Virus record (IMG/VR): IMGVR_UViG_3300005758_000578
Coordinates: 1 to 64,000 of that record
DNA length: 64,000 nt
Direction: 5' to 3' (one strand)
From: a virus
Part shown: positions 39,678 through 60,847 of the stretch, in pieces
Numbering within the stretch: the stretch's first letter is position 1
Layout: the number at the start of each line of letters is the position of its first letter
Notes under the pieces: model-generated
What the model was told of the DNA's origin: nothing
What the model saw: the letters and a program-made list of their open reading frames with translations, nothing else
Database searches by the model: none
Translations under genes and position numbers: made by a program

Positions 39678-42600
39678 TTATCTTCTAATTTGGTATTCTA
39701 CTCCTTTCAAAGCTTTAACTGGATCAATCTGACTACCAGTAAATCCAAATAAATATCCAAAGTCATTAAACACTTTAGGAGCACCTTCTTTTTGCCATGA
39801 GTAAGGTCCTACATCTCGTGTATAATAAGCACGGTTATCATTAGATAAAAGGTGAACTAAGTTTGTACCAAAGTCTTTGTACTTATCTACAACAGGTCCT
39901 AACGTTGGAGCACCACCATTATATACTAATCCTACATATTCTTTAGGATTCAAGAATGTAATAGTTTCTTGTCTTGTACCTAATGCTACAACAAGACCAT
40001 GATTAACTAACCAACCTCCAGCATTAAAATCATCAGATAATAAATCACCACTTCTTTGGCGCATTTTTTCAAATCTATCTTCATCATCTGGATCATACCC
40101 AAACAAGTAACCAATGATTAATGCAAGCATTGTAAGACTAATACCCTCTGTTAAAACTTTTTTAGCAGCATATGCCTCGTCATCAGTTAAATACATATTA
40201 CCGGATGAAGCTCTAGATACAAAAGACTTTAACAATTTTGCAAATGCTCTGTAATATCCTTCAGACATATCACCAGTTCTCATATTATATCTTAAAGGAC
40301 TAAATCTATTTACAAACATTCTTGTAAAGAACCTTCTTAATCCTGAGAACATTCTCCATACAGCATACTTATCAAGCATTACCTTATCCATCATTGAATA
40401 AGCACCTTGTAAGTCATTACTTTTTTCCTGTATAGTATTACGCATTGCTTTAAACTCAGCACCACCCGGAGCATAAGTTTCATCAATACCTGGTTTTAAT
40501 TTAATTACTCCAGTACCATCTTTCTCCCACGCATCTAAATAAGATATCATGTTTGTCTTACCATTAATAGTCTGCGGTACTTTTTTATATATCATTATAC
40601 CGGCAAACAAAGAAAGTGTACCTTCATTTTCTAACCACTTTCTTGGAGAAGTATAGATACCATGAGATATACCTTTACCCGCACCAAACATTAAACTATC
40701 TGCTAAGTCTGTACCAAAAGATCTTCCAAACTCAGAACCAAAACGTTCTTGGAATCTTCCTTTAATAGGATCAAAAATCTCAACTAATTGATAATCAATG
40801 CTTTTCTCACCTGGGTTATAGATATTAGCAGAGATATCTGTCATTATCTTTAAAGCTCTTGATTGTCCTTGTATGTAAGAACGTTTATTAAGATACTTAC
40901 CACCACCTGATTCAATAATCATTTGTGTAACAGCACCACCAAAGTTTTTAACTGCAGATGGTAAAACGTTAAATGCAAACATTCCAAATGAAGATTGTGA
41001 TTGTAAAATATCTACGGCTTTACTTAATGAAGTGGGTTCAGATAACCAACCTGCTTTAGTTTGTCCCTTAAACTCTCTTTCAATAAGAGTGTTGATTGCT
41101 TCAGCTCTTACATTCTTACCTTTCTTTGCAATAAAAGATTTAACATTATTAGTAACCCAGTTATAACCGTTTACTTTAGAGGTATCTTTAATAGCATTTT
41201 CAGAGTTATTTACAACTTTCTGTAACGCTTGAGCAATAGGATTTAATTCAATAAGTTTTTTCTGGTGCTCTAGTGAGAACATGTATTGCATTAAAGAGTA
41301 TGGTACATTTAATGATACCTGATCTACATCTAGTTTATATAATCCTTTTACAGGAATAGATGAGATCTCTTCATCAAACATGTCAGCTCTAACTAAGTTA
41401 AATGCATCATCATAGTTAAATCCTTGATCAAAATCATCTTGAGATTTACTTACAGCATCTTTAACTTGTTTAACAAAAGTCTTTACTTTCTCAGCACCTC
41501 TGTTTAAACTACCACCTACTAATTCACTTTTAAGCTTTCTAAATCTTGGTACATCTAGATACAATCTACTGTACTTAGTTTTATCTTCCTGGAAAAGAAG
41601 AGTGTACTTAGTAATAACATCAAGAACTTTTGCTTTATCAGGAGAATTCTTTTGTAGATCGTAATAAGCTTTGTTGATATAAGAATCATCCTTTGCTCCT
41701 TCAGCTACTGTTCTTGGTAACCAGTTACCGCGGTTATCAATGTGCACTCCTACTTTACGTTCTACTTTACCGGTAGTTTTATTATATCCAGTTCTGTATT
41801 CTTTCTTAACTACTCTTCTATAGAAATCCATAGTAGGTACTCTATTTACAGTGACCTCAGTAGTCTCACCTGTAGATGGATTTACATCATTATACGTATA
41901 AGTATTATAGTATTCTTCATCTGAAGGAATTGTTACATTCCAAACATACAATCTTTCATATACCCGCTCATCTTTTTTAGTCTTGCTGTTATACTTTTCT
42001 GTTTCAATGTGATTAGCAAGAAACCATTCTTTAAATTCAGGACTTGCTTTAAAGTATTTAGATAAGAATGCAGGTCTTAAGAAATTATCAGCATTGTCAA
42101 CATTAATCTCACTAACAGAGAAGTTAGCAAGTTTTGCTGGATCAATTGCTTCTAATACACTATTAAATGCAGATAAGTAATCATCAGTTGGTTCTTTAGA
42201 TTGCATATCAGCTAACTGACTGTATAGATTTAACAATGTCTTTTTAGTTAATCTATCTACAGCGCTTTCTCCTTTTAACTTATCTAATTCTTTAAACTCT
42301 TCTTTATCATTAATGGATGCTCTTCTGCTTTTAATTAACTTAGCTAACTCTATATATCTTTCAAATTGTAGTTTGCTTAAACCACTAAAGCCGGCCATGT
42401 TATCTTTAATCTGAAGAAGTTCTTTTTGTATTTCTTTTACTCTCTTAACTCTTTCTTCAGACATCTCTGATGCTACAATCTGACCATCAGCATTTCTAAA
42501 TCCAACTGAGATATCTATAAGTTCTTCCCAAAGTTTATCCTGTTGTAATTTTTTACTTACATCTTTTGGTAGTTTATCTACCAGAGCTTTGATCTTATCA

Positions 42601-45236
42601 AGAATTTGCATCTTGTCTTCATAGAACTTTTCATTAATAGAAGTTCTAGTATTAGACTTAACCCAGTCATCAACGTTATCTTTAAACTCTTGAGAATCAG
42701 ATAGCAATCCCTGGTCTAAAAGATCTTGCTTAAATTGATTTAATTTAAACTCAAATAATCCAGTGATCTCTTTACTTTCATAGAACTTACGGGACTCTTC
42801 TCTGTACTGTTTTTCTATCTTAGCCATCTCTAACTCATCACCTGTTTTAAGTTTACCACTCTCATCACGCAATGATGCTAATTGACTATACTTCTTCCAT
42901 AAGATTTTCTTTTCTTCAAAAGCCTCATCTTCTGTAAGATCCTCAAATACCCTTTGATCTATATCAGCAATATCAGCTAAGATATCTTGCTTTCTTTGAT
43001 ATATAATAGAACCTAAATCAGAGTCATAAATTTTCTCCTTAGCATAAAACTCTGGTATAAACTCATCATGCATATAATCACGAGAGAACTGTCTGTACTG
43101 TTTATTAAGAAGTCTTGCTTTCTCTAAGTCTCCAACTCTTTTAGCATCTTCTATATCAAACTGAAACTGACTTGTTACCTTTTCAAATGCTTTAAAAGGA
43201 TTAAGTAATACTAGCTTAGTAATAGTACTAGCATTACCATTCTCATCACGTACAATTACTTCCTGCTCAGTAACTAATTCTTTCATTAGTTCTGTGATAT
43301 TTTTATCAGAGTAACCGGCTTGTTTTAATGCTGGTAATAACTCCTGCAAGAAATCATCTTTATTCTTTTTAGCTTTTAATTCTACATCAGTGTAGGCATT
43401 ATCTAAGAATACTGAGAAACTAGCAATAATAGGATCTGGTGAACTTGCAAATGCTTCTACATAAGCAGATAATGCATTAACATCACCACGCATACCTGAC
43501 AAGTAATCATCAACTGTAGCACGGTTTAGTTTTAATCTCTCCCATTCTTGCTCTATCTCTTTTATTTGTTTTGCAGAAGCATTTTTAGATTTTAACGTAT
43601 TAAGTTTATTGGTAAAGTATGTATCTACATTTTTAGCCAAAGGCTCTATTTGTTCTGTTAATACACCACCAACACCTTTTTTATAAATCTCATTAATAAG
43701 TCTATCAGCTTGCTCTGCTTTCTTAGCCATCTTAGCAAATAAAGCAAACAAAGAACTATCTGTACGTAATCCAGAATCTGTTAAACCATTAATAGTTTCT
43801 TGAATAAATTTATTCCAGTTACGTAATAAAATATCATAATAGAATGTTTGATTAATAACCTCTTTAGTATCACCAAGAGATTTCATCTCAGCTAATTTAT
43901 CTACTATTCTATCTAGTAATACATCTGTTTGTAAAGAACTTCTTACAATTGCTTTAACCTGTTTCTCTCTTTTATCAACCTCATCCCTAAACTTCTTAAC
44001 TTTATCATCTACTGTAGTTGTTTCAGCAACACGTAAATTGTCTACAATATCTTTAAGAATAGATCTACCAGATTCTGTAGTAATAGTATTTACAAAATCA
44101 GAGTAGTTTTGGTTTGTTCTAATTCTATTTAACTGTGATCTAGAGTTAGAGAAAAATCTATTAACAACTTGGATAAGCGCATCTGTATTTACTTTATTCA
44201 GATCATTATATAAAGTCTCATTACTTCTAGCATATGATACTAAATCATCAGGTGTTATGATCTCAGTTGTAAGAATAAAGTTCTCACCCACTAACATATC
44301 AGCTAACTGATTAAGTGTGGTATCTACAGATAACTTCTCAATCTTTACTCCTTTACCAAATACTTTTCTGATTAATTGTTTTATAGCAAATAATAGATTA
44401 GAGATAAAAGAATTAAATCCAGGAGTAGAAGATATTTTATTAGCTTTTTGTACAGCTGCTTGTTCTAAGGCTCTTACAAATACTTCTTGAGCAAAGTTAG
44501 GATTAGTAATATCGTACTCAGGATACAGTTCTGTTACAGTATTTACAATTGCAGCACCCTCTGGTGTACTAATAATCTGATTGTATAGATTATTAAACAA
44601 ATCATAGTTACTTAAATATAAACTTCTAACTATAGGATGTGCATATTCATGCAATACATGATTTAGTTTAAAACCATTTTCAATAAAGTATACAGTGTCT
44701 TGATGATAGAACGCAGGTTCACCATTCCAGGGAGCAGTTGTATCTTTTGTAATCTCTGCAGCTTGCTCAGCAGAAATCATTTTATAATTAATACCTGTCT
44801 GAGATGCTAAGTTATTAGCAAACTTAGTTGCTATCTCTTGAGCTTTTACATTCTCTTGTAACTGTACAGATGGAAACAGACTATTTAAAAAGTCTTCATC
44901 AGCAACTCTATAGTAGTCAGGTGTTTCTTCAGTAATGTTATTTTTTCTTTTATACTCTTCCCAATAGTGATCAACAACATAACTAGGTGGATTAACAAAT
45001 ACTCTAGCTGTACCATCCCAGGTAATAAAATCAGCCATATTAGTTCTCCAATACTCATTTAATCCTAATACGGCTTTTGCAATAGATGCTGCGCCAGCTT
45101 TTGTGTTACCAGCTGCATTTACATAAAATGTAGTTAAACTATCTGTTGGAGATAAGAACTGTCCAACCTCTTTAGCTAAAGCTTTTTTGTACGTCTTTAG
45201 TACATCATTTTGTATATCTAATCTACACTTACTCAT
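39678..45236 (-). CDS. Giant virion cargo/ejection protein with a zincin-like HExxH
   Basis: ~1852 aa; VLHEYAHP..E; hydrophobic C-terminal segment; ATGA-coupled start MSKCR. Confidence 0.8.
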   Translation of the reverse strand: MSKCRLDIQNDVLKTYKKALAKEVGQFLSPTDSLTTFYVNAAGNTKAGAASIAKAVLGLNEYWRTNMADFITWDGTARVFVNPPSYVVDHYWEEYKRKNNITEETPDYYRVADEDFLNSLFPSVQLQENVKAQEIATKFANNLASQTGINYKMISAEQAAEITKDTTAPWNGEPAFYHQDTVYFIENGFKLNHVLHEYAHPIVRSLYLSNYDLFNNLYNQIISTPEGAAIVNTVTELYPEYDITNPNFAQEVFVRALEQAAVQKANKISSTPGFNSFISNLLFAIKQLIRKVFGKGVKIEKLSVDTTLNQLADMLVGENFILTTEIITPDDLVSYARSNETLYNDLNKVNTDALIQVVNRFFSNSRSQLNRIRTNQNYSDFVNTITTESGRSILKDIVDNLRVAETTTVDDKVKKFRDEVDKREKQVKAIVRSSLQTDVLLDRIVDKLAEMKSLGDTKEVINQTFYYDILLRNWNKFIQETINGLTDSGLRTDSSLFALFAKMAKKAEQADRLINEIYKKGVGGVLTEQIEPLAKNVDTYFTNKLNTLKSKNASAKQIKEIEQEWERLKLNRATVDDYLSGMRGDVNALSAYVEAFASSPDPIIASFSVFLDNAYTDVELKAKKNKDDFLQELLPALKQAGYSDKNITELMKELVTEQEVIVRDENGNASTITKLVLLNPFKAFEKVTSQFQFDIEDAKRVGDLEKARLLNKQYRQFSRDYMHDEFIPEFYAKEKIYDSDLGSIIYQRKQDILADIADIDQRVFEDLTEDEAFEEKKILWKKYSQLASLRDESGKLKTGDELEMAKIEKQYREESRKFYESKEITGLFEFKLNQFKQDLLDQGLLSDSQEFKDNVDDWVKSNTRTSINEKFYEDKMQILDKIKALVDKLPKDVSKKLQQDKLWEELIDISVGFRNADGQIVASEMSEERVKRVKEIQKELLQIKDNMAGFSGLSKLQFERYIELAKLIKSRRASINDKEEFKELDKLKGESAVDRLTKKTLLNLYSQLADMQSKEPTDDYLSAFNSVLEAIDPAKLANFSVSEINVDNADNFLRPAFLSKYFKASPEFKEWFLANHIETEKYNSKTKKDERVYERLYVWNVTIPSDEEYYNTYTYNDVNPSTGETTEVTVNRVPTMDFYRRVVKKEYRTGYNKTTGKVERKVGVHIDNRGNWLPRTVAEGAKDDSYINKAYYDLQKNSPDKAKVLDVITKYTLLFQEDKTKYSRLYLDVPRFRKLKSELVGGSLNRGAEKVKTFVKQVKDAVSKSQDDFDQGFNYDDAFNLVRADMFDEEISSIPVKGLYKLDVDQVSLNVPYSLMQYMFSLEHQKKLIELNPIAQALQKVVNNSENAIKDTSKVNGYNWVTNNVKSFIAKKGKNVRAEAINTLIEREFKGQTKAGWLSEPTSLSKAVDILQSQSSFGMFAFNVLPSAVKNFGGAVTQMIIESGGGKYLNKRSYIQGQSRALKIMTDISANIYNPGEKSIDYQLVEIFDPIKGRFQERFGSEFGRSFGTDLADSLMFGAGKGISHGIYTSPRKWLENEGTLSLFAGIMIYKKVPQTINGKTNMISYLDAWEKDGTGVIKLKPGIDETYAPGGAEFKAMRNTIQEKSNDLQGAYSMMDKVMLDKYAVWRMFSGLRRFFTRMFVNRFSPLRYNMRTGDMSEGYYRAFAKLLKSFVSRASSGNMYLTDDEAYAAKKVLTEGISLTMLALIIGYLFGYDPDDEDRFEKMRQRSGDLLSDDFNAGGWLVNHGLVVALGTRQETITFLNPKEYVGLVYNGGAPTLGPVVDKYKDFGTNLVHLLSNDNRAYYTRDVGPYSWQKEGAPKVFNDFGYLFGFTGSQIDPVKALKGVEYQIRR

Positions 45237-46984
45237 AATTTGCAACTGTTGTATGTTTCATCTTGAACTTCAGGATATCCTATTGGGGCATATGTATTAA
45301 CGGGCTCTGCATTAGCATCTATATTAAAACTAGTATTACCATCTGCAAAAGAAAAATATCTATATCCTGCATTTGTAAATTTAAATGCATTATTAATAAA
45401 AGGATCATAGTAAATTAAATCTACTATATCTTTTGATCTACCCATTTTAATTTTAGCTTCAAAGATTTGTTTCCAGTCTTTAAAGTAGTTATCAAATATT
45501 TCAGGATAGTTACCTTCTGCAGTACGCACAAAGAAATCAAAAGTATAAGCTACTATATTACCTTTATCATCATACTGTTTATTACCAGCATCATCTAATA
45601 TCGGTATAATTCCTTGCACTGTTACTGTCTCCTGATTAGCTTTATGATCTTTACCAATAAATGCATTAGTCATTTCAAAGGTCGGATATTTTTCAGTAAA
45701 TGCTTTATACCAATTTTGTTGCTCAATAAACTCTTTTACCTTACTGGTAAACTCATTCTGATCTTTAATATAAATACCTTTATGATGTAGCCAACCATAA
45801 AACTCATCATAGTTCTCTTCTTTCTGAACAGTACCTAATTCTATAACGCCATCAATATCATGGATATCTTCATCTATAACTCTATAGACAGTACCATAAT
45901 ATCTTAATACCATAGAACCACTTAATTTATAACCCATGTTTGGATTATTAAGCATAAAATCTATAATTGATTTAGCTACAGGATCTTTAGATAAAGTCTG
46001 ATTATACTTTTTTAACTCTAATTGTTTAAATCCTAATTGACTATTTTTATCAGGAACTAATAAAGAATCACCAACTCTTTCTACACCACGGGTAAAAATA
46101 TTATAATTACCCTTATAAATATCATCTACTAAATCTAGTAATCTATCCTCTAAATCTTGCTGATTAAGTTTATCAAACTTATTTCTAAATAAAGACAAAA
46201 AGAAATCATGGATTTTATACCATAACTTTTTTAGAGCACTAGATTGTTTATCATATGGATTATACTTAAAACCTCGTTTTTCAAAGTATGCTTTATCTAC
46301 ATCACCATTACCTCTTTCACTTCTAACAAATGTAGTTAAATCTCTTCCATAAAAATCTGTAAGACCTTCAGCAATAAAATCTATAATTACTTGTTTATGT
46401 GCAGTAAAATTAAAATTGCTATCTGCATACATATCAACAAGATACGGGGGTAGATCACTATCTTTATCTAAATTATCTTTAGTAAAGATATCTTCTATCT
46501 CAGTAGTATCTTCTAGTTTTAATCTATATGATCTATATAGATCTTTATACTTAGACCAGCTTTTAATATTAAACCAAAGATTATTATAGAGCTCGCTTTT
46601 TTTACCTAAGAAACTAAGCATAATATTAGCTACTTGTTTAGGTACAATTTCTTCAGCACCATCTCTAATAGCTAGATACTTTTGTAATAAATCAAAACCC
46701 GCTAAAGGATTACCTGGAACATTATTTAATAATGCTTCTGCAACATTACCACCTTCAACTTTAATATTTAGTGCTCTTACAAAATCTAATAATATTTTAT
46801 TAGTTCCTGCAGATAACTTAGGATTAAGAGGAATAGAGTTATTTTTTCTATTTACAATATTCTTATATACAGTAGCTGGAGGATTACCCTCAAACTTATC
46901 CCAAAGATAAGTAGCCATCTTTGTACCTTGGAATGCTTCTAACCTTTGAAAGTCAGGATCTGATTTTATAGGACAGGTTGCCAT
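45233..46984 (-). CDS. Virion cargo protein with a Pol-beta-superfamily nucleotidyltransferase domain
   Basis: LSGSMVL..HDIDG, a third Asp in FDFF, and K..GRSKD..D; start MATCP overlaps the upstream stop. Confidence 0.7.
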   Translation of the reverse strand: MATCPIKSDPDFQRLEAFQGTKMATYLWDKFEGNPPATVYKNIVNRKNNSIPLNPKLSAGTNKILLDFVRALNIKVEGGNVAEALLNNVPGNPLAGFDLLQKYLAIRDGAEEIVPKQVANIMLSFLGKKSELYNNLWFNIKSWSKYKDLYRSYRLKLEDTTEIEDIFTKDNLDKDSDLPPYLVDMYADSNFNFTAHKQVIIDFIAEGLTDFYGRDLTTFVRSERGNGDVDKAYFEKRGFKYNPYDKQSSALKKLWYKIHDFFLSLFRNKFDKLNQQDLEDRLLDLVDDIYKGNYNIFTRGVERVGDSLLVPDKNSQLGFKQLELKKYNQTLSKDPVAKSIIDFMLNNPNMGYKLSGSMVLRYYGTVYRVIDEDIHDIDGVIELGTVQKEENYDEFYGWLHHKGIYIKDQNEFTSKVKEFIEQQNWYKAFTEKYPTFEMTNAFIGKDHKANQETVTVQGIIPILDDAGNKQYDDKGNIVAYTFDFFVRTAEGNYPEIFDNYFKDWKQIFEAKIKMGRSKDIVDLIYYDPFINNAFKFTNAGYRYFSFADGNTSFNIDANAEPVNTYAPIGYPEVQDETYNSCKL

Positions 46985-49900
46985 TAGCCACAAATTTCTT
47001 TTAATATTTCACCAATTGTATCTTCATCATATCCCATCTCTTCTAACATTTTAGAATTAATTGCAGATGCTGGATAAATATTACCATCAATCAAAGTTAC
47101 CTCTTTTTCTTTTACAACTTGATCCTCAGTATCAGGAGCACTATCTGGATCTTCTTCAAAGACTTGATTGATAGGTTGTACAGAATAAATATACTCTTTA
47201 AATTCCGGATCTTCTGCAAACACAGGATTTTTATATCCAAAGTTATAGTATAACTCTTTAAATAATTCCATGTAAGCTGCCTTATCAATATTAGGATCAT
47301 CATTTAAAATACCATAACCTTCAGTATTAAAGAGTAACGTTTTACCAGCCTCATATAATTCTATAAGAGAGGTAACCGTTTCCTCTACTAACTTCATGTT
47401 GTCAGCATTATTTGCAGCATTTAAATACTTAGGTTTACCAACAAATGATTCAAAAATAGGTAAGCCAATTGTAGTACCAGTTACTTTACTAGTATTACCT
47501 AAGTATGTATCTGAAGCAATAACATTAGTTCCGGTATTATCTTTAGCTTTACTATATACACCCACTAAGCCGGAATATCTATTTATTAACCCTACAGTGC
47601 GCATCTTACCATAAGAATAAGTATATACTCTAGGAGTTAAAGTTGAAGATGTTCCTTCAGGTAATTTAGGAATTTCATCGCCCATCTTTTCAATAGTATT
47701 ATCTACCACATAGTTTTTAAATCTATACTTAGTAATATTATTTCTAGAGTTCTGCTCATTAAACTTCTTATAGTATCTGTATAAAGCAGTATTACCTTTG
47801 TCACTCTCCAATACTTTAGTAAACTTATCAATGTTTTCTTTAATGATTTCTTTAAAGTTATTGCTAGATAAGATAGGAACAAAAGACAAGTATGATTTAT
47901 TCATACCGGACTGCATAAATCCAAAAATAGATAGCTTATTAAAGAACTCAGAAATCTCTCTATTAATAATAGGATCAGGATGCTTTTCTACATTTATATC
48001 TGATAATTCTTCAAACTGAGTATTCATATCCTCTAAGAAGTCAGTATCTTTTGTATCACCAGTTAAACGTAAATTTTTAATTGTTGCATTCTTAGTACCT
48101 GTCTTTATTTGTTGAGAATCATAAACAAGATAATCAAACAAGCTATAATCTCTATTTTCTATAAAGTTCTTTATATCTTCAAACTTATCTGGAAAACTAG
48201 TAGGACCAAAGAACATTGACTTAAGATTATATACATTATGTAATGCATCTTCAACAAGTCCTTTTTCATAGATATCCTCTGAAAAATCACCTCTATCTCT
48301 GGTAGCACGTAAGTACTCTCTCTCTAAAACAAAAGCAGTGTATTGTTTTTCAGAACTGAATAAAGGTATAACATCTGTACGTTTATCAAATGGTAACTTT
48401 GCTAAACCGGTTTCTTCATACTCAGCCTTAGAATAAGTCTTATTATTATATTCTTCACGTAGTTTAGCTCTATCTAAATAGATTTTACCTTCATAGTATA
48501 CAGCACTTCTTTTAAGACCCCTTACTTTTTCTACATCAATAGTATCACTTACAGCATATCCTTTATAATCTTTTACTGTGTTAATATCTACAGACCCAAT
48601 ACTATTTTGGATAATAAACTGCAGAAGATCATTTCTAAATAAATCCACAAATGAGTCTACATCTCCATACTCCTCACGAATAATATTGTAATTATTATTA
48701 ACTATATCAGTTAAATAAGTATTTATAGCATTACTTGCTCTTAATGGGAAGTAATCTTTAAATACATTTAAGATATAATCTTGTATAAAGAATGGAGCAA
48801 TAGAAGATTCATTCTCTAACTTAACTGTAATTTCATTAGGTAATCTACTACCTTCTTCTAACTGTTCTAACTTACTTAAACGACTCTTTGCTTGATATAA
48901 GTTACCAGACTTTTTAGTATCAACGTTAGTAGAAGAAGATATTTCCCGCATTACTTGCGCCTGATCTTCTATTTCTAAGAAATGTATAAATGCTAATTTA
49001 GCTAATGGACTTCTCTTGTATTGTTTTTGTACAATCTCTTTTATATTATCATCAGAGATAGCATAAACATTATAAGCTTTGGTCATAATGTCTACGGCTG
49101 CAGTTAAAGATTTTTTAGAACCTAATGGATTCTTTCTAGTATTTGCATTATATAGTTGCTTTAGTAAGAAAGGATCTTTTAATCTCTTCTTTAACTCACG
49201 TTTATCATCTTCATCAAATATACCATACTTGTCAATTACATACTGTTTGGCTTTAAACTTTAAGAAACCAGGACCTTTAGCACTATCTCCAGATGTATCT
49301 AGTGATTTAGTATACATACCATTTAATACTCGGTATGTAGATATATATTCTTTAATTAAAGGTTGTGATAAGAAATATGCAGCTGTTTTAACATCAACAC
49401 CAGCTTGTAACATGTATAACAAAGTAGGTATTAACTCATAAATAGCATTCATATCAAATACCCATGAATCTTTTTCAATATCCACCCAACCGTTCATAAG
49501 CTGAGAGATTACATCAGAGATATAAACAGCTGAATCTTTAGAGTTAAGATCTGATAAAGATATCTTACCGTCCTCTGTTTTATTATGTTTAAACAAAATA
49601 CGATTCTTAGCAGTTCTTTGTTTTCCTTTATTATCTAAGAAATTGTATGTCTTATCTAAATATGCACCAACACGGTTAAGAAGTACTGAGTATTTGTTTG
49701 ATACAGCACCAATACCCAATGTTAATTTACCAATGTTATTAGATTCATGCTTATACAAGTTATTTTCTGTCTCAAACATTCTTGTTGGAGAAACAGTAAA
49801 GGCAGAGTCTTGGAACTCAGCTTTAGCTCTTGGGTTATAGTCTCTATTAAACTGTGCTAATTCATCTGCAATTGGTTTAACAATATCTGTTTCGTTAGGA

Positions 49901-52900: not shown

Positions 52901-55900
52901 AATGCTTCTCTTAAAGTTGGGTTATCATCTAAATAAAAACCTACAGCTTTTAAAAAGTCAAATACATTAAGTTTATTAATTGATGAAAAGTCTTCAAATA
53001 CCTTATCTATATTCAAGATAGGTGTTGATCCCTTCTTTCTAATTACATACTTAGATCGGTTAGTTAAAAATTTAGAATTAAAACTATTAACAATTTTTGT
53101 TGTATCACTAGTAGCTCTTTGAATATATGTAGAAACCTTAGTTGATGCAGATTTATCTTCCTCTTCTTCAATAGATGTAGAAAGTCTGTGTTCTATAATA
53201 GGTGTTACAGTTTTATTAAATGTTTGAGCAAATCCTAACCAACGTTTAAAATTAGCGTTATTAGTTTGAGATTGTTCAGGATCTCCTAATTTAGCAATTA
53301 ACTGAGCTGCTTCTGGAAAACTTTCTTGCAATCCAACTAACTTAGTATAGATCTCATCAAATGTATTTGAGTTAATTAAAGTTTTAGATATTGTACTCCA
53401 AGCTTTACCAAATTCAACAAGTTTATTAAAACCTAATCTATTCTTAATAGGTTCCCCATTTGCTTTTACTTGATATAAACTCTTAACCATATAAAGAGCT
53501 TGTTTAGAAGCTAACTCTTTTAATGATTTATCATTACCTGAACGGTCAAAACTATCTACTCCTGGATCTGATTTGTCTTCTTCTGCTTCAAGAACTTTTG
53601 CTTCAAAAGCTAAGTATTTAGATTTTTGTCTATGATAAGCAATAACACCTGACTTTTCTTTACCGGAAATAACATTATCTAAATCACCAAAGTTATTAAT
53701 AGCATACTCTAGTATCCGGATATTGTTTCTATCTATAGTATTTACACCATCAGGATCATTCTCAACCCTAGCAATTGTATCATTTAAAACATCTTGAAAA
53801 TACTGCTTAGTATTTTTATATAAGAAGTCTAATGCTCTTTTATCACTATAGATTGCTGAAATATTTAATCCAGTAGCATTAATAATTTCTGAGAAAGCAC
53901 CATCAACTGATTCATTAATTAATCTGCTATCAGATAAACTGATACTGGGTTCTTCTTCATTTAATGGATCTATACCTCTGTATAAGTTACCAAACTGCAT
54001 GTTCTCTACAGAGTAAGCATACTCAAATAGATTACCCAATCTTAAGTTATCATATAACTCTTTTACTAATGGTACAACAGTAGGATCTACAATATCAGTT
54101 TGACCGGTGAAGAAAGCTTTTACAATACGCCATAATTTCTGGAAGATACTTTCATTAGGCTTAACAAGAATTTTCTTACCATCAGATAATACATAACCTC
54201 TGAAGTCCTCAGCCAAGTATTCTTCTACTTGCTTATCAGTTGCATTAGCTAAATACTTAACCCCTTTTCTTACTGAATCATATAAACTTTGCTTTTGATC
54301 CTTTGTTAATAGTAACTGTGAGAATGCATGCCATGCTTCATGATATAAAGTAGTGTAATCTTTATTACCAGCTTTTGTAAATAATGTAATACCGCTAGAA
54401 CTAAATAGTCCTAATGCATCTGAGTTAGTTAAAGCAATTGCTTCATTAACCGGGATCATTGTAGAAAGCTTTACTTTCTCACCATCTACCATAACCTCTA
54501 AAGATCCATACCAGTCTTTAATCTTTTTAATCTCTTCAGGTGTAGTATTTACAGGTTTAAATCCGGCTCTCTTCAAACTATTGTTAATCTCATTAACAAG
54601 GTCCATATCAAATGTACCTTTAAAACCAGAAGGTGTAGTATTTACATTCTGATTCTTAATAATAGTTTTAGGTTTGGCTTTTACTTTAGTTTTAGTTTTT
54701 TTACCCTCTTCTTCAACTGGTACCTCTTCTTCCTTTTTCTCAGTTGGATACATTTCTTCTAATGCATCAATAGTAAATTCATACTGCAAACTGGGGTTAA
54801 AGGTTTTAATGGTACCATCATTACGCAACACGGTAAACACTACAGTATTCTGTCTTACAAAATCATTATAATCAATCTTAGTCTTTGTAAATTTGCCTGA
54901 CTTATAATTAGGTAAATCTATCTTACCATCAATATTATCTTTTGATATATTTATATAAGCGGTAGCTAACTGTTCTGCTATAAAATCTTCATCTGCTAAA
55001 TCCGGATTTTCAGAATCATATATTACATCCTTATCTGAATAGATACTTAAAATTGGTTTCTTATTAGTGTCATCGTAACTAATATTAAAAGTACCGTCAT
55101 TAACGTTATAGATATTCTCCAGTATACCAAATTTTACAGCATTTGATACTTTAGGATCCGCAATAAGTTTTGCAAGATTCTTAGCTAATTCATTAGATGT
55201 CTTAGTAGGAAATACTTGTACAAGATCTCCAAACTTATCTAATTTTAAAAATGTTTTACCAGAGTTGTCAAACTCTATATTACTAATAGTATCTGAAGTA
55301 ATGTTACTTACCTCAGTTAATTTAACCGGTGTATCAGATAATAAGTTAAAGCCAGATCTACCACCAACTATCTTTAATGGTAAAGCTAAACTCTTATTAC
55401 CTATAAAGGTTTTAATAAATTTATCTACTAACTCTACTTCTTTAGCTCTTTGATCCTCTAATTGTTTTCTTAAAACTTCTACATCTGGAATTTCCACTCC
55501 GGCTCTAGCAGCTTTAGCAATAGTTCTTTCTACTAGTTCATCTATAGGTGCAAGACTAGTCTCACCATTCTCTACAAATATGAACTCTCTTTTACCCTTA
55601 TTAGTATTAGGAGTGATGAAATCAGTTACGGGAATAATAGCACCTTCTGCTTCATCTTGACCTTCAATATTTGTAATATAACCTCTACTATTTACAAAGA
55701 TTTTCTTGTATCCATCTTTAGTAAAAGTAGCAAAAGATAACTGCGTAATTCTACTACCTCTAGATGTAATTGTATCAGTAGGAATCATATAGATACCTTT
55801 GATTTTAGTACCATTAGATGCAGTTATCTCTATTTGTTCAGCACTATCAAGATTTAGTTTACTTAGTCTATCTAGAATAGAGCGCATAAATGCATAGGTA

Positions 55901-56430
55901 GCAATCTTTTCAGGATCTGGATCTGCCTCACCTGTTAACTCACCTTCTTCATTTACCTCTTCTTCTTGACCAGTAGTAACTAAACCAGTAGTATGTTTTG
56001 CCTGGAATTCTATATCACTACTTAATTGTGTAGCTCTCTCTAATTGAGAACTAATAATCCCGGCTTTCTTTCTTACTTGCTCTAGTCTTTCTGGACTTAA
56101 TTCTTTTACTGCAAGATATTTTTCTACAACTGTAATATCTTCAAAGCTATCTCTAAGATCTAAAATATCATCAGTACTAATTTGATTATCTCTAAAATGC
56201 TTACGAATATTAGGATTCTTATTAACTATAGTGGCAATAATTCTTGGAACCAATTGTATGTAAGTTAATCCTAAACTAGTATCATTACTAGCAGCAACTA
56301 CTTGCTCATAAAATTGATTAATATAATCTTTTAAATTATAGGGTGTTTTGTTATCTGTAATAACAGATAAGTCTTTAAAAACTTTAGCGTAAAACTGCTG
56401 CTGTTGTAATGCGGATAGTGAACAATTCAT
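46984..56430 (-). CDS. Virion-packaged RNA polymerase (crAss-like, double-psi beta-barrel)
   Basis: 3148 aa; catalytic GGDFDIDK, upstream RIPVQG and EGDGQGW; zincin-like LYHEAWH. Confidence 0.88.
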   Translation of the reverse strand: MNCSLSALQQQQFYAKVFKDLSVITDNKTPYNLKDYINQFYEQVVAASNDTSLGLTYIQLVPRIIATIVNKNPNIRKHFRDNQISTDDILDLRDSFEDITVVEKYLAVKELSPERLEQVRKKAGIISSQLERATQLSSDIEFQAKHTTGLVTTGQEEEVNEEGELTGEADPDPEKIATYAFMRSILDRLSKLNLDSAEQIEITASNGTKIKGIYMIPTDTITSRGSRITQLSFATFTKDGYKKIFVNSRGYITNIEGQDEAEGAIIPVTDFITPNTNKGKREFIFVENGETSLAPIDELVERTIAKAARAGVEIPDVEVLRKQLEDQRAKEVELVDKFIKTFIGNKSLALPLKIVGGRSGFNLLSDTPVKLTEVSNITSDTISNIEFDNSGKTFLKLDKFGDLVQVFPTKTSNELAKNLAKLIADPKVSNAVKFGILENIYNVNDGTFNISYDDTNKKPILSIYSDKDVIYDSENPDLADEDFIAEQLATAYINISKDNIDGKIDLPNYKSGKFTKTKIDYNDFVRQNTVVFTVLRNDGTIKTFNPSLQYEFTIDALEEMYPTEKKEEEVPVEEEGKKTKTKVKAKPKTIIKNQNVNTTPSGFKGTFDMDLVNEINNSLKRAGFKPVNTTPEEIKKIKDWYGSLEVMVDGEKVKLSTMIPVNEAIALTNSDALGLFSSSGITLFTKAGNKDYTTLYHEAWHAFSQLLLTKDQKQSLYDSVRKGVKYLANATDKQVEEYLAEDFRGYVLSDGKKILVKPNESIFQKLWRIVKAFFTGQTDIVDPTVVPLVKELYDNLRLGNLFEYAYSVENMQFGNLYRGIDPLNEEEPSISLSDSRLINESVDGAFSEIINATGLNISAIYSDKRALDFLYKNTKQYFQDVLNDTIARVENDPDGVNTIDRNNIRILEYAINNFGDLDNVISGKEKSGVIAYHRQKSKYLAFEAKVLEAEEDKSDPGVDSFDRSGNDKSLKELASKQALYMVKSLYQVKANGEPIKNRLGFNKLVEFGKAWSTISKTLINSNTFDEIYTKLVGLQESFPEAAQLIAKLGDPEQSQTNNANFKRWLGFAQTFNKTVTPIIEHRLSTSIEEEEDKSASTKVSTYIQRATSDTTKIVNSFNSKFLTNRSKYVIRKKGSTPILNIDKVFEDFSSINKLNVFDFLKAVGFYLDDNPTLREALENALLDRKSKETYIAFDYLIEALKKAKENKTIITNPIKFFRDPKQGNQSGYVNKILTLQAKYSSSDFSTGIMNPEGNMEYETSLRNSLSQIIDGLNKVTKLSDMLEDPQFNYLRAYHPDINPYSKHSYIMKSLFDSNGNRRKDVILSLENLSGVRRDFNGITVEGIKTNKLNKYDKFMFDVHAIILGKTPELPRHASKSSSYGVGMNKYYGEAGVDNLIVPIKDVARYGHDSAMPIILNYLSAELERIWYIKNIPSLQNVDSFKKNGTKIMAFDSVLSAATKAKLYELVDNAESIDDIVYSEELEKDIKKDSGKYFNNQIRTNYKIWTQISAVTGSVLLSPEIRTKIAEETRIGKGLDKTNKYANDPQAQLELINEVYTYNSWFNNFETQLFYGDASQFNHEKEEFPKRNASIASTGDFAILDNYTIDYLNNTSNNTYAEKEGLPKLRFDSAIKTTVLNDIEPESVYYSHYKQLLVSLGVSEERAEKILKPYKKITEGDGQGWITFDFYRNYLRSLNKWSDIQEDLYNDVINNPDSVDPKKVAEFFPVLKASYYGPLKTEKLNASGLHKFSLMPLIPTVIKGTNLEQFHKQLLEQGISYALFKSGSKISNITLEDGTIPNMYTDATKRTLYTGEYAINGINLNFFKNQLDIAPYFKGKVTLSSQLRTIIETNLYANGKPLKKEYKSIVERYEKAIDNYVKFYKQKLFKEVGLEFSADGKLIKGDPKDLIKAIQKELVRLEVPEHQMDILDVNEDGSLKYDFDSIINSNTIEKQLVSIIERKIVRPTVKGEQLVQVSSSGFENPKFTNPSKEDLLKYGTNGLAFYDVVNGKITPMQVKVALQGDFLKLLLTTHVDGKKVGTLERLNEMLKDKQWRDLNVETIRMVGVRIPVQGLNSIEYMEVGEFLPAEAGSIVIVPTELVAKSGGDFDIDKLSILMPNISISQTTDTIQESTYKQLLDEVFNKEASMTADDSTIRGIENEIIKSMIGIMEIKENFVQLITPNETDIVKPIADELAQFNRDYNPRAKAEFQDSAFTVSPTRMFETENNLYKHESNNIGKLTLGIGAVSNKYSVLLNRVGAYLDKTYNFLDNKGKQRTAKNRILFKHNKTEDGKISLSDLNSKDSAVYISDVISQLMNGWVDIEKDSWVFDMNAIYELIPTLLYMLQAGVDVKTAAYFLSQPLIKEYISTYRVLNGMYTKSLDTSGDSAKGPGFLKFKAKQYVIDKYGIFDEDDKRELKKRLKDPFLLKQLYNANTRKNPLGSKKSLTAAVDIMTKAYNVYAISDDNIKEIVQKQYKRSPLAKLAFIHFLEIEDQAQVMREISSSTNVDTKKSGNLYQAKSRLSKLEQLEEGSRLPNEITVKLENESSIAPFFIQDYILNVFKDYFPLRASNAINTYLTDIVNNNYNIIREEYGDVDSFVDLFRNDLLQFIIQNSIGSVDINTVKDYKGYAVSDTIDVEKVRGLKRSAVYYEGKIYLDRAKLREEYNNKTYSKAEYEETGLAKLPFDKRTDVIPLFSSEKQYTAFVLEREYLRATRDRGDFSEDIYEKGLVEDALHNVYNLKSMFFGPTSFPDKFEDIKNFIENRDYSLFDYLVYDSQQIKTGTKNATIKNLRLTGDTKDTDFLEDMNTQFEELSDINVEKHPDPIINREISEFFNKLSIFGFMQSGMNKSYLSFVPILSSNNFKEIIKENIDKFTKVLESDKGNTALYRYYKKFNEQNSRNNITKYRFKNYVVDNTIEKMGDEIPKLPEGTSSTLTPRVYTYSYGKMRTVGLINRYSGLVGVYSKAKDNTGTNVIASDTYLGNTSKVTGTTIGLPIFESFVGKPKYLNAANNADNMKLVEETVTSLIELYEAGKTLLFNTEGYGILNDDPNIDKAAYMELFKELYYNFGYKNPVFAEDPEFKEYIYSVQPINQVFEEDPDSAPDTEDQVVKEKEVTLIDGNIYPASAINSKMLEEMGYDEDTIGEILKEICG

Positions 56431-56434
56431 ATTA

Positions 56435-59400
56435 TTAACAACCTATATTATTAAAGAAATCATTATTTACATCTTTCTCAGACTTATTATTAGTCTGATC
56501 TTCAAGCTTTTTAGTAGCTTCTTCGTTATCTAAGAAGTCATCTATATTTTGTGAGTTGGTCTCAATAATCTTCTTCTCTTCTGCTGAAGGAGAAGGAACA
56601 TCTTTAGTACCAACTACTACATTGGCTTCTGTATCGTATAATGATTTTACCATTTTTGAGAAATCTTTCTTTAAAACTGTAATGCGTTTATTAGCATCTT
56701 TTGCCGGAGTCATACGCTCACCATACAAAGGTACTACAACTAATTTAGTACTTGTAACTTTCTCAACCAAACCAAACTTATTATCTCCAAATACTAATAC
56801 ATCTCCCTTTTTAACATTCTCATATTTTACAGACTTACTTAACTCTTGTTTACGAGACTCAATTGCTTGATTAATAGTATCAATATTAGTTGGATCTTCA
56901 GCTAGTAAATCTAAATCTAATTCTTCTAACATAGTATCTAATTCACTAAGTGACTTAGCTTTACTAATTGTATCTAGGATTGGTTGTAATGGATCAGTAA
57001 CTACTTCAGTTTCTGTAACTGGCTGTTCTAAAGCAACTAGTTCTGCGTTATATTTTACATCATCACTTTTAATGCCTACATCCATTTTACCAAACTGGGT
57101 AGTATAAACACTTACTACACTACTAAATCTTGAACTGGTAGGTGCTCTTTTTACTTTTATTACTGTAATCCTTGAGTCATCATCTAATCCTTCAAATATT
57201 TCTGCATAATCCTCGTCTAATGGAAACTCTTCTTTAAATTCTTTAAGAGTCATTGATTTACCTCCCAGTGTCTCAGTAGTATCTCCAACATTTGCTTCAT
57301 ACTCTGTGACACTTACTAATGTACCATCTAAATCTGTAATAGAATTAGTCTGACTTACGGTTCTTGTTTGACCTTTTCTATTTCCTTTTTCTACAATTTC
57401 AGAAGATATTATTTTTGTAGTTCTTTTTTCTATATTAGCTCTAGCATCTGTAGGTTGAGTAGAAGTAGGTTTAGCAGGTTCAGCTTTAGGTGCTTCTGCT
57501 GGTTTTGCTGGAGCTTTCTTTTCATTAAATGCTTTAACGTCTGCAGCATTCTCAGGATCTTTAAAGAACTTACTAATAATTCTTCTAACAGATGCTGTAC
57601 GTAAAAATCTATCTAATGGTAATTCATCTTCTCCATCAGCTTCTCTAGCAGAATTTTGTTGAGCTAATGCGGATCTGATTAAACCTTGTAGCTTAAGTGG
57701 TAATCCATTAAACTGTTTAACTGATTGAATTAAAGGTACACCCTCTTCTTGTTGAATCTCATCGGATACTGCAGGTTGCTCTTCTACTACCTCTTCTTCT
57801 GTAACGACTTCTTCAACTGGAGCTTCCTCTGTTTTTTCTTCAGTTACAATACCATCAAACTCGTTAATGATATTAAAGATGAGTAAAGACCTTGGATCAG
57901 TTTTATCAAACTCTCTATCTGAATTAAAATCTATAAATACTACATCTAGATCATTAATTACAGTCTTTACAAATTCGTCATAGTCTTTACTTACATCTTT
58001 AGGTAAAGAAGATAATTTTATACCAAAACCTCTATCAGCTAAAAACTGAATAAAGTCTCTAAGTTTTACAGAGTTAATGAAAGCCTTTCTAGCTTTTTGC
58101 ATATAGGCTACTTGTTTTTCTTGCCTATACTTTTGCTGTTCTATAAGTCTATTTACATAATTATAGAAAGTTTGAGGATCATATAATGAGTTTAGATTTT
58201 CTGTAAATATATTTACATCATCTGCTAACGAATAGTAATCCGTTACAATATTATAAGCTTCTTCAGATTGACCTTTAGAGATAGTTGTTCCGGCTTCCTG
58301 AGCTAGAGTATTGAAGTACTTAACAAAAGCATCTTTTAAAAATCTTTTATTCTTTAACTCTTGAGGATCAGATACATCTCCAACTTTTTCAAGATTTGTT
58401 TTATATAATTCTAAAGCTTTCTTCTTAGCTTTTTTATAGTTAAGAATCTTTAAAGTTTCTTTGTCTGTTGAACCAGTTAATGATTTGATTTCACTATCTA
58501 ATAAGTCTAACTCTTGTTCAAGATTATTAGAGTTTAATAAAGGTGTGATATCTGAATATGTTAACTTACCAATTGTACCAATAGCAGTAAGTCTATCGGT
58601 AAGATCACCCATTCTTTTTTGGGCCTGTTCTCTACCATGTAAACTAAATACAGCAACTTTTCTTGCCTCTTCAAATGCTTTATAGTTTATTACTTCTTTA
58701 ACATATGCATCTTTAGTTTCAGGATCTGATAGATTAGTTCTTCTAAATTTATTAGGATTAAAAGGATTTTTATAATCTGAAAATTCTTTATACTGTTCTT
58801 TAATTTGCTTAGCTCTTTCAATACTAACATCTAATATTTTTAAAGCTTGTTCATCAGTTACATCTTCAGTTAAATCAAAGGCTTGCTTTAATTCATCACC
58901 CTTCATATCCTTTAAATTCTGTAACTTTTCTATTAATAGATCAAACTTACCAGATTCTAATGCTGTATAGATACTGTTAAATCGGGCCATATCTTTTAGA
59001 TCATGGAAGGCTTTTTCATCAAAGTTCTTCCGGGCTTCTACCATATCTGTACCTAATCTAACTTGTGTTAGTAGATCTTCAATATCTAAGGTTAAAACCT
59101 TCTGACCATTCTTAATAGCATCATCTAATTCGCTAACTATATTTTTAAATCTTTCTTGTTCTGCTTTATATAACTGATTGTACTTTTCAGGATCATTCTT
59201 TATATAGTTATAATAGATATTAGAACCTGCTCTTCTTGATACGTTAGCTAAATTACCAGCAATACCAGTAAGACCACCCATTAAGAATCCTGATGCAAAC
59301 ACTTCAAGACCTTGCATAGATGCTTGTTTCTTAGTATTCTCATAAGCATCAGCTAAGTAGATCATAATACCTCCAGCTTCTGGAGTATCATATAATCTAT

Positions 59401-60847
59401 CATAATAATTTTTAGAGGCACCTGCTACAACTTCTTGAGAAATTTCTTGAAGACCTTCAGATAGATTTCTCTTAAAGTATTGAGCTCCAAAACTTAAATA
59501 CTCTTTTGGTTTTAATATTTTCTTAGCTGCTTCTTTTGCAGTTAATACTGTAGCACCTTCTGTACTTGCAATGATTTGTTCTCCAGTTAGTGCTGATCTT
59601 GCAATAACATCATTTGTTGGAGCATTTAACATTGCTGATTTGCCTTTAAATAAGTTATTAAAAGTAATAGCATTAGTTAAATATATAAGAGGAGTATTAA
59701 TAGCACTTGTAGTAAAACCAGCATCACTAGCTAAACTATAAATTCTATTCATCTCTTCTTGCTCTGGATAATATCCATTCTCTGCAACAAATTGATTTAT
59801 CTTATCATCAATAAACTCATTCTTAACAGCACCACCTTCCATAGAAGCTTCAGCAACTGTATATCCAACTTGCTTAAGATCTAATATAAAATCACCAACA
59901 CCTCTTACAGCATTAGCATAACCAATCACATTGTCTCCAGCATTTATTGTATTTCTAACATTTGATAATGTTCTTGGTACAAGCGCTTCTGCAACACTCT
60001 TAACACCTTGACCAAGACGTGTAGCATCTAAACCTTTAATAGCACTGTATGCTTCTCTTGCACCATTAGCAGTAAATAACTTACGCATATTAGCTAAGTC
60101 TTTAGCTGCTTTAACTGTTTTAGCAGAACTAGCTCCCAAAGCTGCTGGTAAAGTAGCACCTTCTGTTAGGGCAACACTACCCGCAATTACAGCTTCAGTT
60201 AATAAATAGTCACCAACAATACCTGCTACAAATCCAGATTGTAATAATAAGTTAGAGGCAAACTGTGTAGCACCACCTTTAGTACTACCATACTCTGCCA
60301 TAATCTGAGCAAACTCATCAGCTGCTTTTTCATCAGTCATTGAGAAATCACCGGTAAGCATCTCACCCATTCCTCTATAACTAGACTTTACTACAGATAA
60401 TCCTAAAGCTGGAACACCTAGTAATCCTCTGCCAAGATCTTCATACCAAGATCTATTTTGATTATAGATCTCATCATTATTAGATAAAGGATCAAAACCT
60501 AACTTATAGAAGTTATCATTGTCATTGTAATATCTATTAAAGTTAGTTTTCTGATATCCGGATTGAAAAGTTTTAATCTTAGACTTTTCAAAAACAAGAT
60601 CAGATTCAGTAATAGGAGATGATAAAACATCCTTAGTAATATCAAAAGGATTATTTTTACTATAATTTACTTCAAATCCTCCGGTAGGAACTGCTGGTAT
60701 ACTAACATCTTCATTGTAAGGAACCAACTGTGCACCAGACGGTAAAGAATTCATACCATCTACAAATACCATATCTGGTCCTTGTAATGAATTAGGTATA
60801 CCGGGCTCTATACCTGGAGGTGGTAAAATGTTTTCAAAATCCGCCAT
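56435..60847 (-). CDS. Large virion cargo/ejection protein
   Basis: 1470 aa; Gly/Ala-rich hydrophobic segments, EGLQE..QE motif and acidic linkers. Confidence 0.8.
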   Translation of the reverse strand: MADFENILPPPGIEPGIPNSLQGPDMVFVDGMNSLPSGAQLVPYNEDVSIPAVPTGGFEVNYSKNNPFDITKDVLSSPITESDLVFEKSKIKTFQSGYQKTNFNRYYNDNDNFYKLGFDPLSNNDEIYNQNRSWYEDLGRGLLGVPALGLSVVKSSYRGMGEMLTGDFSMTDEKAADEFAQIMAEYGSTKGGATQFASNLLLQSGFVAGIVGDYLLTEAVIAGSVALTEGATLPAALGASSAKTVKAAKDLANMRKLFTANGAREAYSAIKGLDATRLGQGVKSVAEALVPRTLSNVRNTINAGDNVIGYANAVRGVGDFILDLKQVGYTVAEASMEGGAVKNEFIDDKINQFVAENGYYPEQEEMNRIYSLASDAGFTTSAINTPLIYLTNAITFNNLFKGKSAMLNAPTNDVIARSALTGEQIIASTEGATVLTAKEAAKKILKPKEYLSFGAQYFKRNLSEGLQEISQEVVAGASKNYYDRLYDTPEAGGIMIYLADAYENTKKQASMQGLEVFASGFLMGGLTGIAGNLANVSRRAGSNIYYNYIKNDPEKYNQLYKAEQERFKNIVSELDDAIKNGQKVLTLDIEDLLTQVRLGTDMVEARKNFDEKAFHDLKDMARFNSIYTALESGKFDLLIEKLQNLKDMKGDELKQAFDLTEDVTDEQALKILDVSIERAKQIKEQYKEFSDYKNPFNPNKFRRTNLSDPETKDAYVKEVINYKAFEEARKVAVFSLHGREQAQKRMGDLTDRLTAIGTIGKLTYSDITPLLNSNNLEQELDLLDSEIKSLTGSTDKETLKILNYKKAKKKALELYKTNLEKVGDVSDPQELKNKRFLKDAFVKYFNTLAQEAGTTISKGQSEEAYNIVTDYYSLADDVNIFTENLNSLYDPQTFYNYVNRLIEQQKYRQEKQVAYMQKARKAFINSVKLRDFIQFLADRGFGIKLSSLPKDVSKDYDEFVKTVINDLDVVFIDFNSDREFDKTDPRSLLIFNIINEFDGIVTEEKTEEAPVEEVVTEEEVVEEQPAVSDEIQQEEGVPLIQSVKQFNGLPLKLQGLIRSALAQQNSAREADGEDELPLDRFLRTASVRRIISKFFKDPENAADVKAFNEKKAPAKPAEAPKAEPAKPTSTQPTDARANIEKRTTKIISSEIVEKGNRKGQTRTVSQTNSITDLDGTLVSVTEYEANVGDTTETLGGKSMTLKEFKEEFPLDEDYAEIFEGLDDDSRITVIKVKRAPTSSRFSSVVSVYTTQFGKMDVGIKSDDVKYNAELVALEQPVTETEVVTDPLQPILDTISKAKSLSELDTMLEELDLDLLAEDPTNIDTINQAIESRKQELSKSVKYENVKKGDVLVFGDNKFGLVEKVTSTKLVVVPLYGERMTPAKDANKRITVLKKDFSKMVKSLYDTEANVVVGTKDVPSPSAEEKKIIETNSQNIDDFLDNEEATKKLEDQTNNKSEKDVNNDFFNNIGC

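Follow-up and report, generated by a model that had tools for sequence, protein, structure and literature searches.

Paired terminal cysteines at the gene junctions of crassvirus cargo proteins: a candidate end-to-end clasp around the virion RNA polymerase

How do crassviruses pack several megadaltons of cargo, order it through a narrow tail and reassemble it into an active polymerase? We address this question from the cargo block of an uncultured phage, the IMG/VR virus record IMGVR_UViG_3300005758_000578 (112 kb), of which positions 1 to 64,000 constitute the stretch of 64,000 nucleotides (nt) analysed here, hereafter the window. Four adjoining genes of this block encode protein A, protein B (the virion RNA polymerase), an inserted link protein and protein C (Table 1). 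Together, these proteins comprise 7053 amino acids (aa) and six Cys, and each of the six is located at most 4 residues from a terminus that faces the neighbouring protein. We conclude that such Cys pairs very probably mark specific physical junctions, and we favour, as probable on balance, a reading in which A, B, the link and C are virion cargo joined end to end via Cys clasps.

The earlier note on this DNA had claimed this Cys count and terminal placement, as well as overlapping stop and start codons (TAATG, ATGA) at two junctions and a 4-nt gap at the third. Every count was exact when we recounted the translations, and the overlaps and the gap are seen in the junction DNA. When the 855-aa protein preceding the block is included, the total is 7908 aa, still with six Cys. 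The other open reading frames (ORFs) of the window contain about 1.2-1.5% Cys, and the cargo proteins are Cys-suppressed, with a Cys frequency far below that of the phage's proteome. At 1.2% Cys, the chance of finding six Cys or fewer in 7053 aa is about 1e-28, and the chance of all six lying no more than 4 residues from the six facing termini is about 1.6e-15. Among 112 ordinary ORFs of the window and four reference crassviruses, 4.5% have a Cys at residues 2-6 and 6.3% have one among the 10 C-terminal residues.

Two IMG/VR scans with polymerase-core alignments yielded 160 loci, and we surveyed the junctions of 155 IMG/VR loci together with those of phi14:2, crAss001, crAss002 and cr50_1, counting distinct junctions. 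In the whole survey, Cys is present on both sides of 192 junctions, on neither side of 19 and on one side of only 2, and the co-occurrence of terminal Cys at adjacent junctions, which the earlier note had proposed as a check across Crassvirales, is therefore borne out (192 paired vs 2 one-sided). The 19 junctions with Cys on neither side correspond to upstream Cys-free proteins, fusions or frameshifts.

The first set of the survey comprises 75 distinct loci whose polymerase core is 33-90% identical to that of the window, with ORFs of at least 300 aa. It contains 292 Cys in 474,610 aa, 265 of which are within 10 residues of a terminus, and its junctions have Cys on both sides in 130 cases, on neither in 9 and on one only in none. 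The nine comprise junctions of the upstream Cys-free protein, the fused protein of locus L078 and two frameshifts inside the polymerase (L047, L089); in L010, L011 and L037, the junction of the upstream Cys-free protein to the next one has no Cys on either side. The N-terminal Cys occupies position 3 (85 cases), 4 (39), 5 (10) or 6 (1), and the C-terminal Cys is followed by 0-9 residues, 0-3 in 119 of the 130. Close relatives of the window (87-94% identity) keep the pattern and are little informative. The Cys-less polymerase splits in L047 (15030-15230) and L089 (10760-10920) were considered as junctions and rejected as frameshifts, one of them at an A-run (L047); they reflect sequencing error or programmed slippage, and no Cys flanks them.

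The second set covers gut and other lineages, with starts fixed to the conserved M-[SD]-C. After this correction, 62 junctions have Cys on both sides, 10 on neither and 2 on the N-terminal side only; the script output was 61 with both and one C-only, and the latter (L091) was moved to the paired class since its MSC follows an extra Cys 32. Wherever the first Cys was at residues 17-35, M-[SD] stood directly before it, and M-[SD]-C is the first ATG in relatives. Internal Cys differ strongly between lineages, with 27 in 474,610 aa in the environmental ones (L010-L089) and 430 in 305,974 aa (0.14%) in the gut-type giant proteins (L090-L136), while the junction Cys are kept in both groups. This contrast may reflect oxic versus anoxic habitats.

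More informative are distant relatives, among them the cultured phages phi14:2 and crAss001, in which the same Cys pattern is observed. In phi14:2, gp67 (1797 aa) terminates in its sole Cys, the Cys of gp66 are at residues 3 and 2179, and gp65 carries Cys 3. In crAss001, residue 2339 of 2341 is the sole Cys of gp47, gp50 (2412 aa) contains Cys 5, Cys 1334 and Cys 2404, and the sole Cys of gp49 is Cys 5. The 4774-aa protein of cr50_1 ends ..KECE and the next protein starts MQC, and crAss002 gp32 ends ..FVCS, followed by gp33, whose conserved start is MSC, 32 codons inside the annotated start. The annotated start of gp33 (L006:17193-17290) is probably too early, as MSC is the first ATG in several relatives. 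The sets gp67-gp66-gp65 of phi14:2 (gp66 being PDB 6VR4) and gp47-gp50-gp49 of crAss001 share with the window a homologous DFDxD polymerase and the same giant flanking proteins, but they have three members, whereas the window has a fourth, the inserted link.

The five giant proteins had no match in PHROGs or Pfam and were identified through their relatives. A tblastn search with B hit 86 crassvirus records (about 20-26% identity), phi14:2 g066 being one of them with E 8e-19, and a profile from the alignment of the catalytic core of B, which includes phi14:2 itself, matches PDB 6VR4. Judged by core homology and the DFDxD motif, B is a Crassvirales virion RNA polymerase of the two-barrel phi14:2 gp66 type. 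The presence of the polymerase in the virion was shown by mass spectrometry for phi14:2 and crAss001, and by analogy B is presumably carried in the virion of the uncultured window phage and ejected into the host. A profile from relatives' A proteins matches crAss001 gp47, and one from relatives' C proteins matches phi14:2 gp65 and crAss001 gp49; both profiles miss the gut-type proteins of 2000 aa and 4000-4800 aa and phi14:2 gp67. Two HExxH motifs were also observed, HEAWH at residue 697 of the polymerase (window 54328-54342, minus strand) and HEYAH at residue 196 of C (window 44637-44651, minus strand). The latter fits, at the level of the motif, the zincin-like domain reported for phi14:2 gp65 orthologues.

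Could the Cys codons be a mere by-product of a nucleotide signal at the junctions, such as translational coupling or RNA structure? The genes are indeed tightly coupled, most spacers of the first set ranging from -11 to +21 nt. Nevertheless, crAss001 and 15 related loci have the A gene on the other strand (in crAss001, gp47 opposite gp50 and gp49), far from the start of B, and its lone C-terminal Cys is retained, which shows that neither junction DNA nor translational coupling is the cause. Likewise, crAss002-like junctions have gaps of 170-270 nt, both codons are used for the terminal Cys (TGT 229 times and TGC 36 times in the first set), and no shared flanking motif is visible in the window junctions. 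We consider this explanation extremely improbable, and a signal at the level of DNA was discarded as excluded by the relocated A genes.

Gene fissions and fusions provide natural experiments on the pairing. The link protein is 39-42% identical over about 500 aa to residues ~93-673 of fused C proteins of 2435-2583 aa (L022, L039, L044), the last 1700-1900 aa of which are collinear with window C. These fused proteins have Cys only at the N-terminal end and none at the point where the window's version is broken. The link thus corresponds to an N-terminal module of C proteins that lack Cys at the break, and in the window lineage the break is flanked by a new Cys pair. A second case of fission is found in L082, whose 396-aa link corresponds to the N-terminal module of other C proteins. 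Conversely, the fused 5642-aa protein of L128 has no Cys, the fused 5002-aa protein of L078 has no terminal Cys, and L137, where the C module is fused behind the polymerase, has none either (0 Cys). In a group with DFDxD at about residue 2700-3700 (cr50_1, L140, L143-L145, L147, L148, L155), the C-terminal Cys is kept and the N-terminal Cys is absent, and the gut-type proteins of 4000-4800 aa have an N-terminal Cys only; for these two groups, the fusion status is deduced from length and the position of the DFDxD motif. The ORFs of L024 and L074, which end at contig ends, were dropped as candidate fusions. Judged from these comparisons, a Cys pair is gained with gene fission and lost with fusion. 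The earlier note had predicted that terminal Cys vanish where genes are fused, and this is what we observe, with fused modules lacking the boundary Cys and new breaks carrying a Cys pair.

These variants also indicate which Cys belong together. In a three-protein set, the equal numbers of N- and C-terminal Cys would also fit polymerase cyclisation combined with a bond between A and C, and the terminal Cys could act alone or with other partners, in homodimers, with another virion part, through lipidation or as an N-terminal nucleophile. However, apparent B+C fusions lack the C-terminal Cys of B and the N-terminal Cys of C, apparent A+B fusions lack the C-terminal Cys of A and the N-terminal Cys of B, and the outer Cys are kept in both, so that exactly the gene-order partners are dropped. 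Such losses fit gene-order pairing and fit neither polymerase cyclisation nor homodimers; N-to-C cyclisation within one protein, which the earlier note had named as a finding that would speak against a chain, is thus the poorer fit. Moreover, 192 paired junctions against 2 unpaired ones are not required by homodimers or solo roles, and the Cys-bearing heads are found on non-homologous proteins. We therefore judge solo or different pairing very unlikely.

The connection involves more than the Cys itself. In L037, which has 79% core identity with the window and no link gene, the polymerase ends in a link-type tail that is 74% identical to the tail of the window's link (..PVNTYAPLGYPEVEDKTNDSC in the L037 polymerase, ..PVNTYAPIGYPEVQDETYNSCKL in the window link), and this tail is followed by the same head as in window C, MSKCRLD. 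Similarly, in the window, L032 and L030 a head MxxCPIK follows a tail [EK]ILKxIC, which is borne by the polymerase in the first two and by a 655-aa link in L030. As far as these alignments indicate, C-terminal tails accompany the downstream N-terminal head, irrespective of the protein that carries them. A blastp search for the connectors of the A tail and B head inside putative fused proteins gave no hits. In L155 (14293-17796), the 1167-aa link consists of two tandem copies of the 583-aa module of the window, with a head and a tail resembling those of its neighbours, which suggests that the connector was duplicated. The earlier proposal that a Cys at either end suffices for any protein to become a new link is therefore too simple, as links bear, in addition to the Cys, tail and head peptides of about 25-100 residues that are cognate to those of their neighbours. 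Tentatively, the tail with its Cys and the head with its Cys could be portable cognate connectors, with any gene so flanked being stitched in, packed at fixed stoichiometry and injected in set order.

The function of the inserted link was approached through its sequence. Among nine homologues, the residues G356, S357, D376 and D378 of a GS..DID motif are invariant, but none of the nine has a Pfam match at E up to 1, and a PDB profile search and an Atlas search with the link were both blank. The AlphaFold2 model of the link has a predicted local distance difference test (pLDDT) of 47.7, too poor for a fold search. The protein had been labelled a nucleotidyltransferase; the G[GS]...DxD motif is present, a weak indication by itself, and the label is at most faintly suggested by it.

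The earlier note had also proposed modelling the paired terminal peptides, and we did so for the A-B junction by co-folding the C-terminal 250 aa of A with the N-terminal 350 aa of B, with a 53-row alignment for each. The complex model scored 0.67, against 0.17 for the best of three controls; in a calibration that holds only roughly, as own alignments were used, 58 of 80 solved complexes and 2 of 110 mismatched pairs scored as high. Contact agreement between runs was at least 48%, with a partner pLDDT of at least 61. The predicted interface comprises residues 199-250 of the A fragment (1419-1470 of the protein) and residues 2-23, 43-72 and 97-100 of B. Both Cys-bearing ends are inside it, and the contacts run antiparallel towards the two Cys. 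The model supports docking of the A tail onto the B head, with the strength of a prediction.

An extended helical interface of about 50 + 70 residues, as predicted here, could hold without a bond, in which case the Cys would be conserved interface residues or redox-sensing free thiols and there would be no covalent chain; the conservation of the cognate tails and heads beyond the Cys is compatible with such docking. However, the terminal Cys is the sole invariant column of alignment A5 (last 250 aa of A, mean identity 18% among 53 homologues), as is Cys 3 of alignment A6 (first 350 aa of B, 53 homologues, 23% identity), a degree of conservation unusual in a residue that only packs. Any further Cys is strictly excluded, and the precedent described below, in cyanophage A4, is covalent. 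Purely non-covalent docking is in our view unlikely.

That precedent is the cryo-electron microscopy structure of cyanophage A4, an unrelated podophage, in which the pre-ejectosome proteins gp27 and gp26 are held together by a disulfide between Cys1715 of the former and Cys5 of the latter, with the C-terminal helix of gp27 inserted into gp26 (PMC12002296). In the genome of this phage (Anabaena phage A-4L, Saffermanviridae), gp27 (1717 aa) and gp26 (1114 aa) have one Cys each, the two bonded residues. As in the window, they are ejection proteins encoded by adjacent genes with a single Cys at the facing termini, two residues before the end of gp27 and at residue 5 of gp26. Unlike the window, with its proposed chain of three links, A4 has one link and no RNA polymerase is involved, and blastp and profile searches found no similarity between A4 gp27 or gp26 and the window proteins. 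The signature therefore has one solved precedent, a disulfide, and by analogy to A4 the junction bond of the window is likely a disulfide as well.

Alternatively, the two Cys could share a metal ion (Zn, Fe, Cu), and two junctions might together form a four-Cys site. The covariation data are compatible with any link mediated by Cys and Cys, a metal clasp would be stabler than a disulfide in the gut, where oxygen is lacking, and the earlier note had allowed for a metal. On the other side, there is one conserved Cys per terminus with no invariant His, Asp or second Cys nearby (alignments A5 and A6), the single solved example of the signature is a disulfide, and crAss001 virions contain disulfides. 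These points make a shared metal improbable, and we retain the disulfide as the preferred chemistry.

Literature and full-text searches found no description of the terminal-Cys pattern in crassviruses, in agreement with the earlier statement that none was known, which holds for crassviruses but has to be amended by the published gp27-gp26 bond of A4. The A4 paper treats that bond as a local stabiliser and does not describe a conserved rule, a fusion surrogate or portable connectors (PMC12002296). The phi14:2 preprint never mentions cysteine and points out a fusion of all three proteins in certain phages (10.1101/2020.03.07.982082). The atlas of crAss001 lists many inter-subunit disulfides, for tail and portal-vertex proteins only, and leaves cargo Cys unmentioned; it assigns gp45, gp46, gp47, gp49 and gp50 to the cargo, which it could not resolve, and proposes N-to-C extrusion with partial unfolding. 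What is new here is a proposed chain of three or four members around a virion RNA polymerase, with the pattern found order-wide and with putatively portable connectors, where A4 had provided a single instance of this kind.

Other systems resemble the window in part. The fused RNA polymerase polyproteins of some crass-like phages have the same module order and are covalently continuous (10.1101/2020.03.07.982082), with a peptide bond instead of the Cys pair, and the fused forms in our survey have no Cys at module boundaries. The ejection operon of Schitoviridae (N4, DEV) encodes giant ejected proteins with strong Cys suppression, as described for N4-like phages, but it has no terminal Cys or proposed link, and its polymerase belongs to the unrelated T7-like family. 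A working analogy is offered by two-chain bacterial toxins, in which a disulfide holds the cargo across the membrane and cytosolic reduction frees the translocated chain. These are unrelated, non-phage proteins with a single bond of intramolecular origin formed after nicking, and they form no end-to-end chain.

In the mechanism that we propose, the C-terminal tail of protein n would dock on the N-terminal head of protein n+1, and the single Cys of each terminus would clasp the pair, most likely by a disulfide, in the assembled or released particle. This would yield a pseudo-polyprotein of about 7,050 residues with the same topology as the fused polyproteins that other crassviruses make as one chain. 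As each Cys is 0-9 residues from a terminus, the unfolded chain could pass the portal and tail as a nearly linear thread, presumably with A first. Purging Cys elsewhere would prevent mispairing, and the clasps would open in the reducing cytoplasm, thereby freeing the polymerase and its partners. That the bond serves ordered threading and opens by reduction is possible, at somewhat less than an even chance. The head-to-tail chain proposed in the earlier note is thus upheld as regards the gene-order pairing of Cys and the comparative checks, which came out as predicted; the bond itself, the fixed stoichiometry, the time of bond formation, the threading and ejection order, and the release by reduction are inferred for crassviruses.

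Several observations weigh against this chain. Phages assemble in a reducing cytoplasm and the gut habitat of crassviruses is anoxic. We found no thioredoxin or glutaredoxin gene in the 112-kb genome; a search of it for an Erv1/ALR thiol oxidase was also blank, as it was in control genomes, and is therefore uninformative. In L150, the N-terminal Cys has no partner anywhere in a 96%-complete genome, and in L144 the relative of the 583-aa link has no C-terminal Cys. Furthermore, the score of the A-B complex is the model's own confidence and not a measurement, and the surveyed sequences are interrelated, so that the junction counts overstate independent events; by our count, about ten fissions, fusions or insertions, or more, took place separately.

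The two exceptional loci have features of their own. In L150 (2936-20278, genome G001), the 5780-aa polymerase protein starts MAC and no protein of the genome ends in Cys; the upstream 1115-aa protein is Cys-poor, with a single Cys 80 residues before its end. In L144 (14976-22142), the link relative has an N-terminal Cys and Cys 521, and is followed by a 628-aa protein with two CxxC pairs and then by a protein starting with MSC.

The features of the cargo block are listed in Table 1. About 0.9 kb downstream of the block, the window encodes a GIY-YIG/NUMOD homing endonuclease of 225 aa (38111-38788, minus strand), and the neighbouring gene encodes a 185-aa protein that matches phrog_3000 and, weakly, an endolysin family.

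Table 1. Genes, Cys codons and junctions of the cargo block, in window coordinates
Feature	Position	Strand	Details
855-aa protein	60856..63423	(-)	0 Cys; precedes the cargo block, not a chain member
Protein A, 1470 aa, proposed first chain member	56435..60847	(-)	Sole Cys is the last residue (..NNIGC*)
Protein A, C-terminal Cys codon	56438-56440	(-)	N-terminal Cys absent from A
Protein B, 3148 aa, virion RNA polymerase (by homology)	46984..56430	(-)	Cys 3 (MNC..), Cys 3147 (..EICG*)
Protein B, Cys codons	Cys 3 at 56422-56424, Cys 3147 at 46990-46992	(-)	
Protein B, catalytic DFDID motif	50110-50124	(-)	Residue 2103
Inserted link protein, 583 aa from its ATG	45233..46984	(-)	Cys 4 (MATC..), Cys 581 (..SCKL*)
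Link protein, Cys codons	Cys 4 at 46973-46975, Cys 581 at 45242-45244	(-)	
Link C-terminal connector tail (putative), ~27 last residues with Cys 581	45233..45322	(-)	Cognate to the protein C head
Protein C, 1852 aa from its ATG, proposed last chain member	39678..45236	(-)	Sole Cys is Cys 4 (MSKC..)
Protein C, Cys 4 codon	45225-45227	(-)	C-terminal Cys absent from C
A-B junction	56422..56440	(-)	..IGC, stop, 4-nt spacer, MNC..
B-link junction	46973..46992	(-)	..EICG, stop/start overlap TAATG, MATC..
Link-C junction	45225..45244	(-)	..SCKL, stop/start overlap ATGA, MSKC..

If an end-to-end clasp operates in crassviruses, it would set the stoichiometry and the ejection order of the cargo, and account both for the free interchange of fused and split forms and for the purge of Cys. 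It would link the single bond of A4 to an order-wide rule, and it points to a possible route for packaging foreign proteins in phage particles. Should the connectors be portable, they would constitute a natural plug-in system for extra injected effectors, in which fusion and fission of modules would be cost-free, and the cargo of crassviruses would amount to one redox-cleavable polyprotein.

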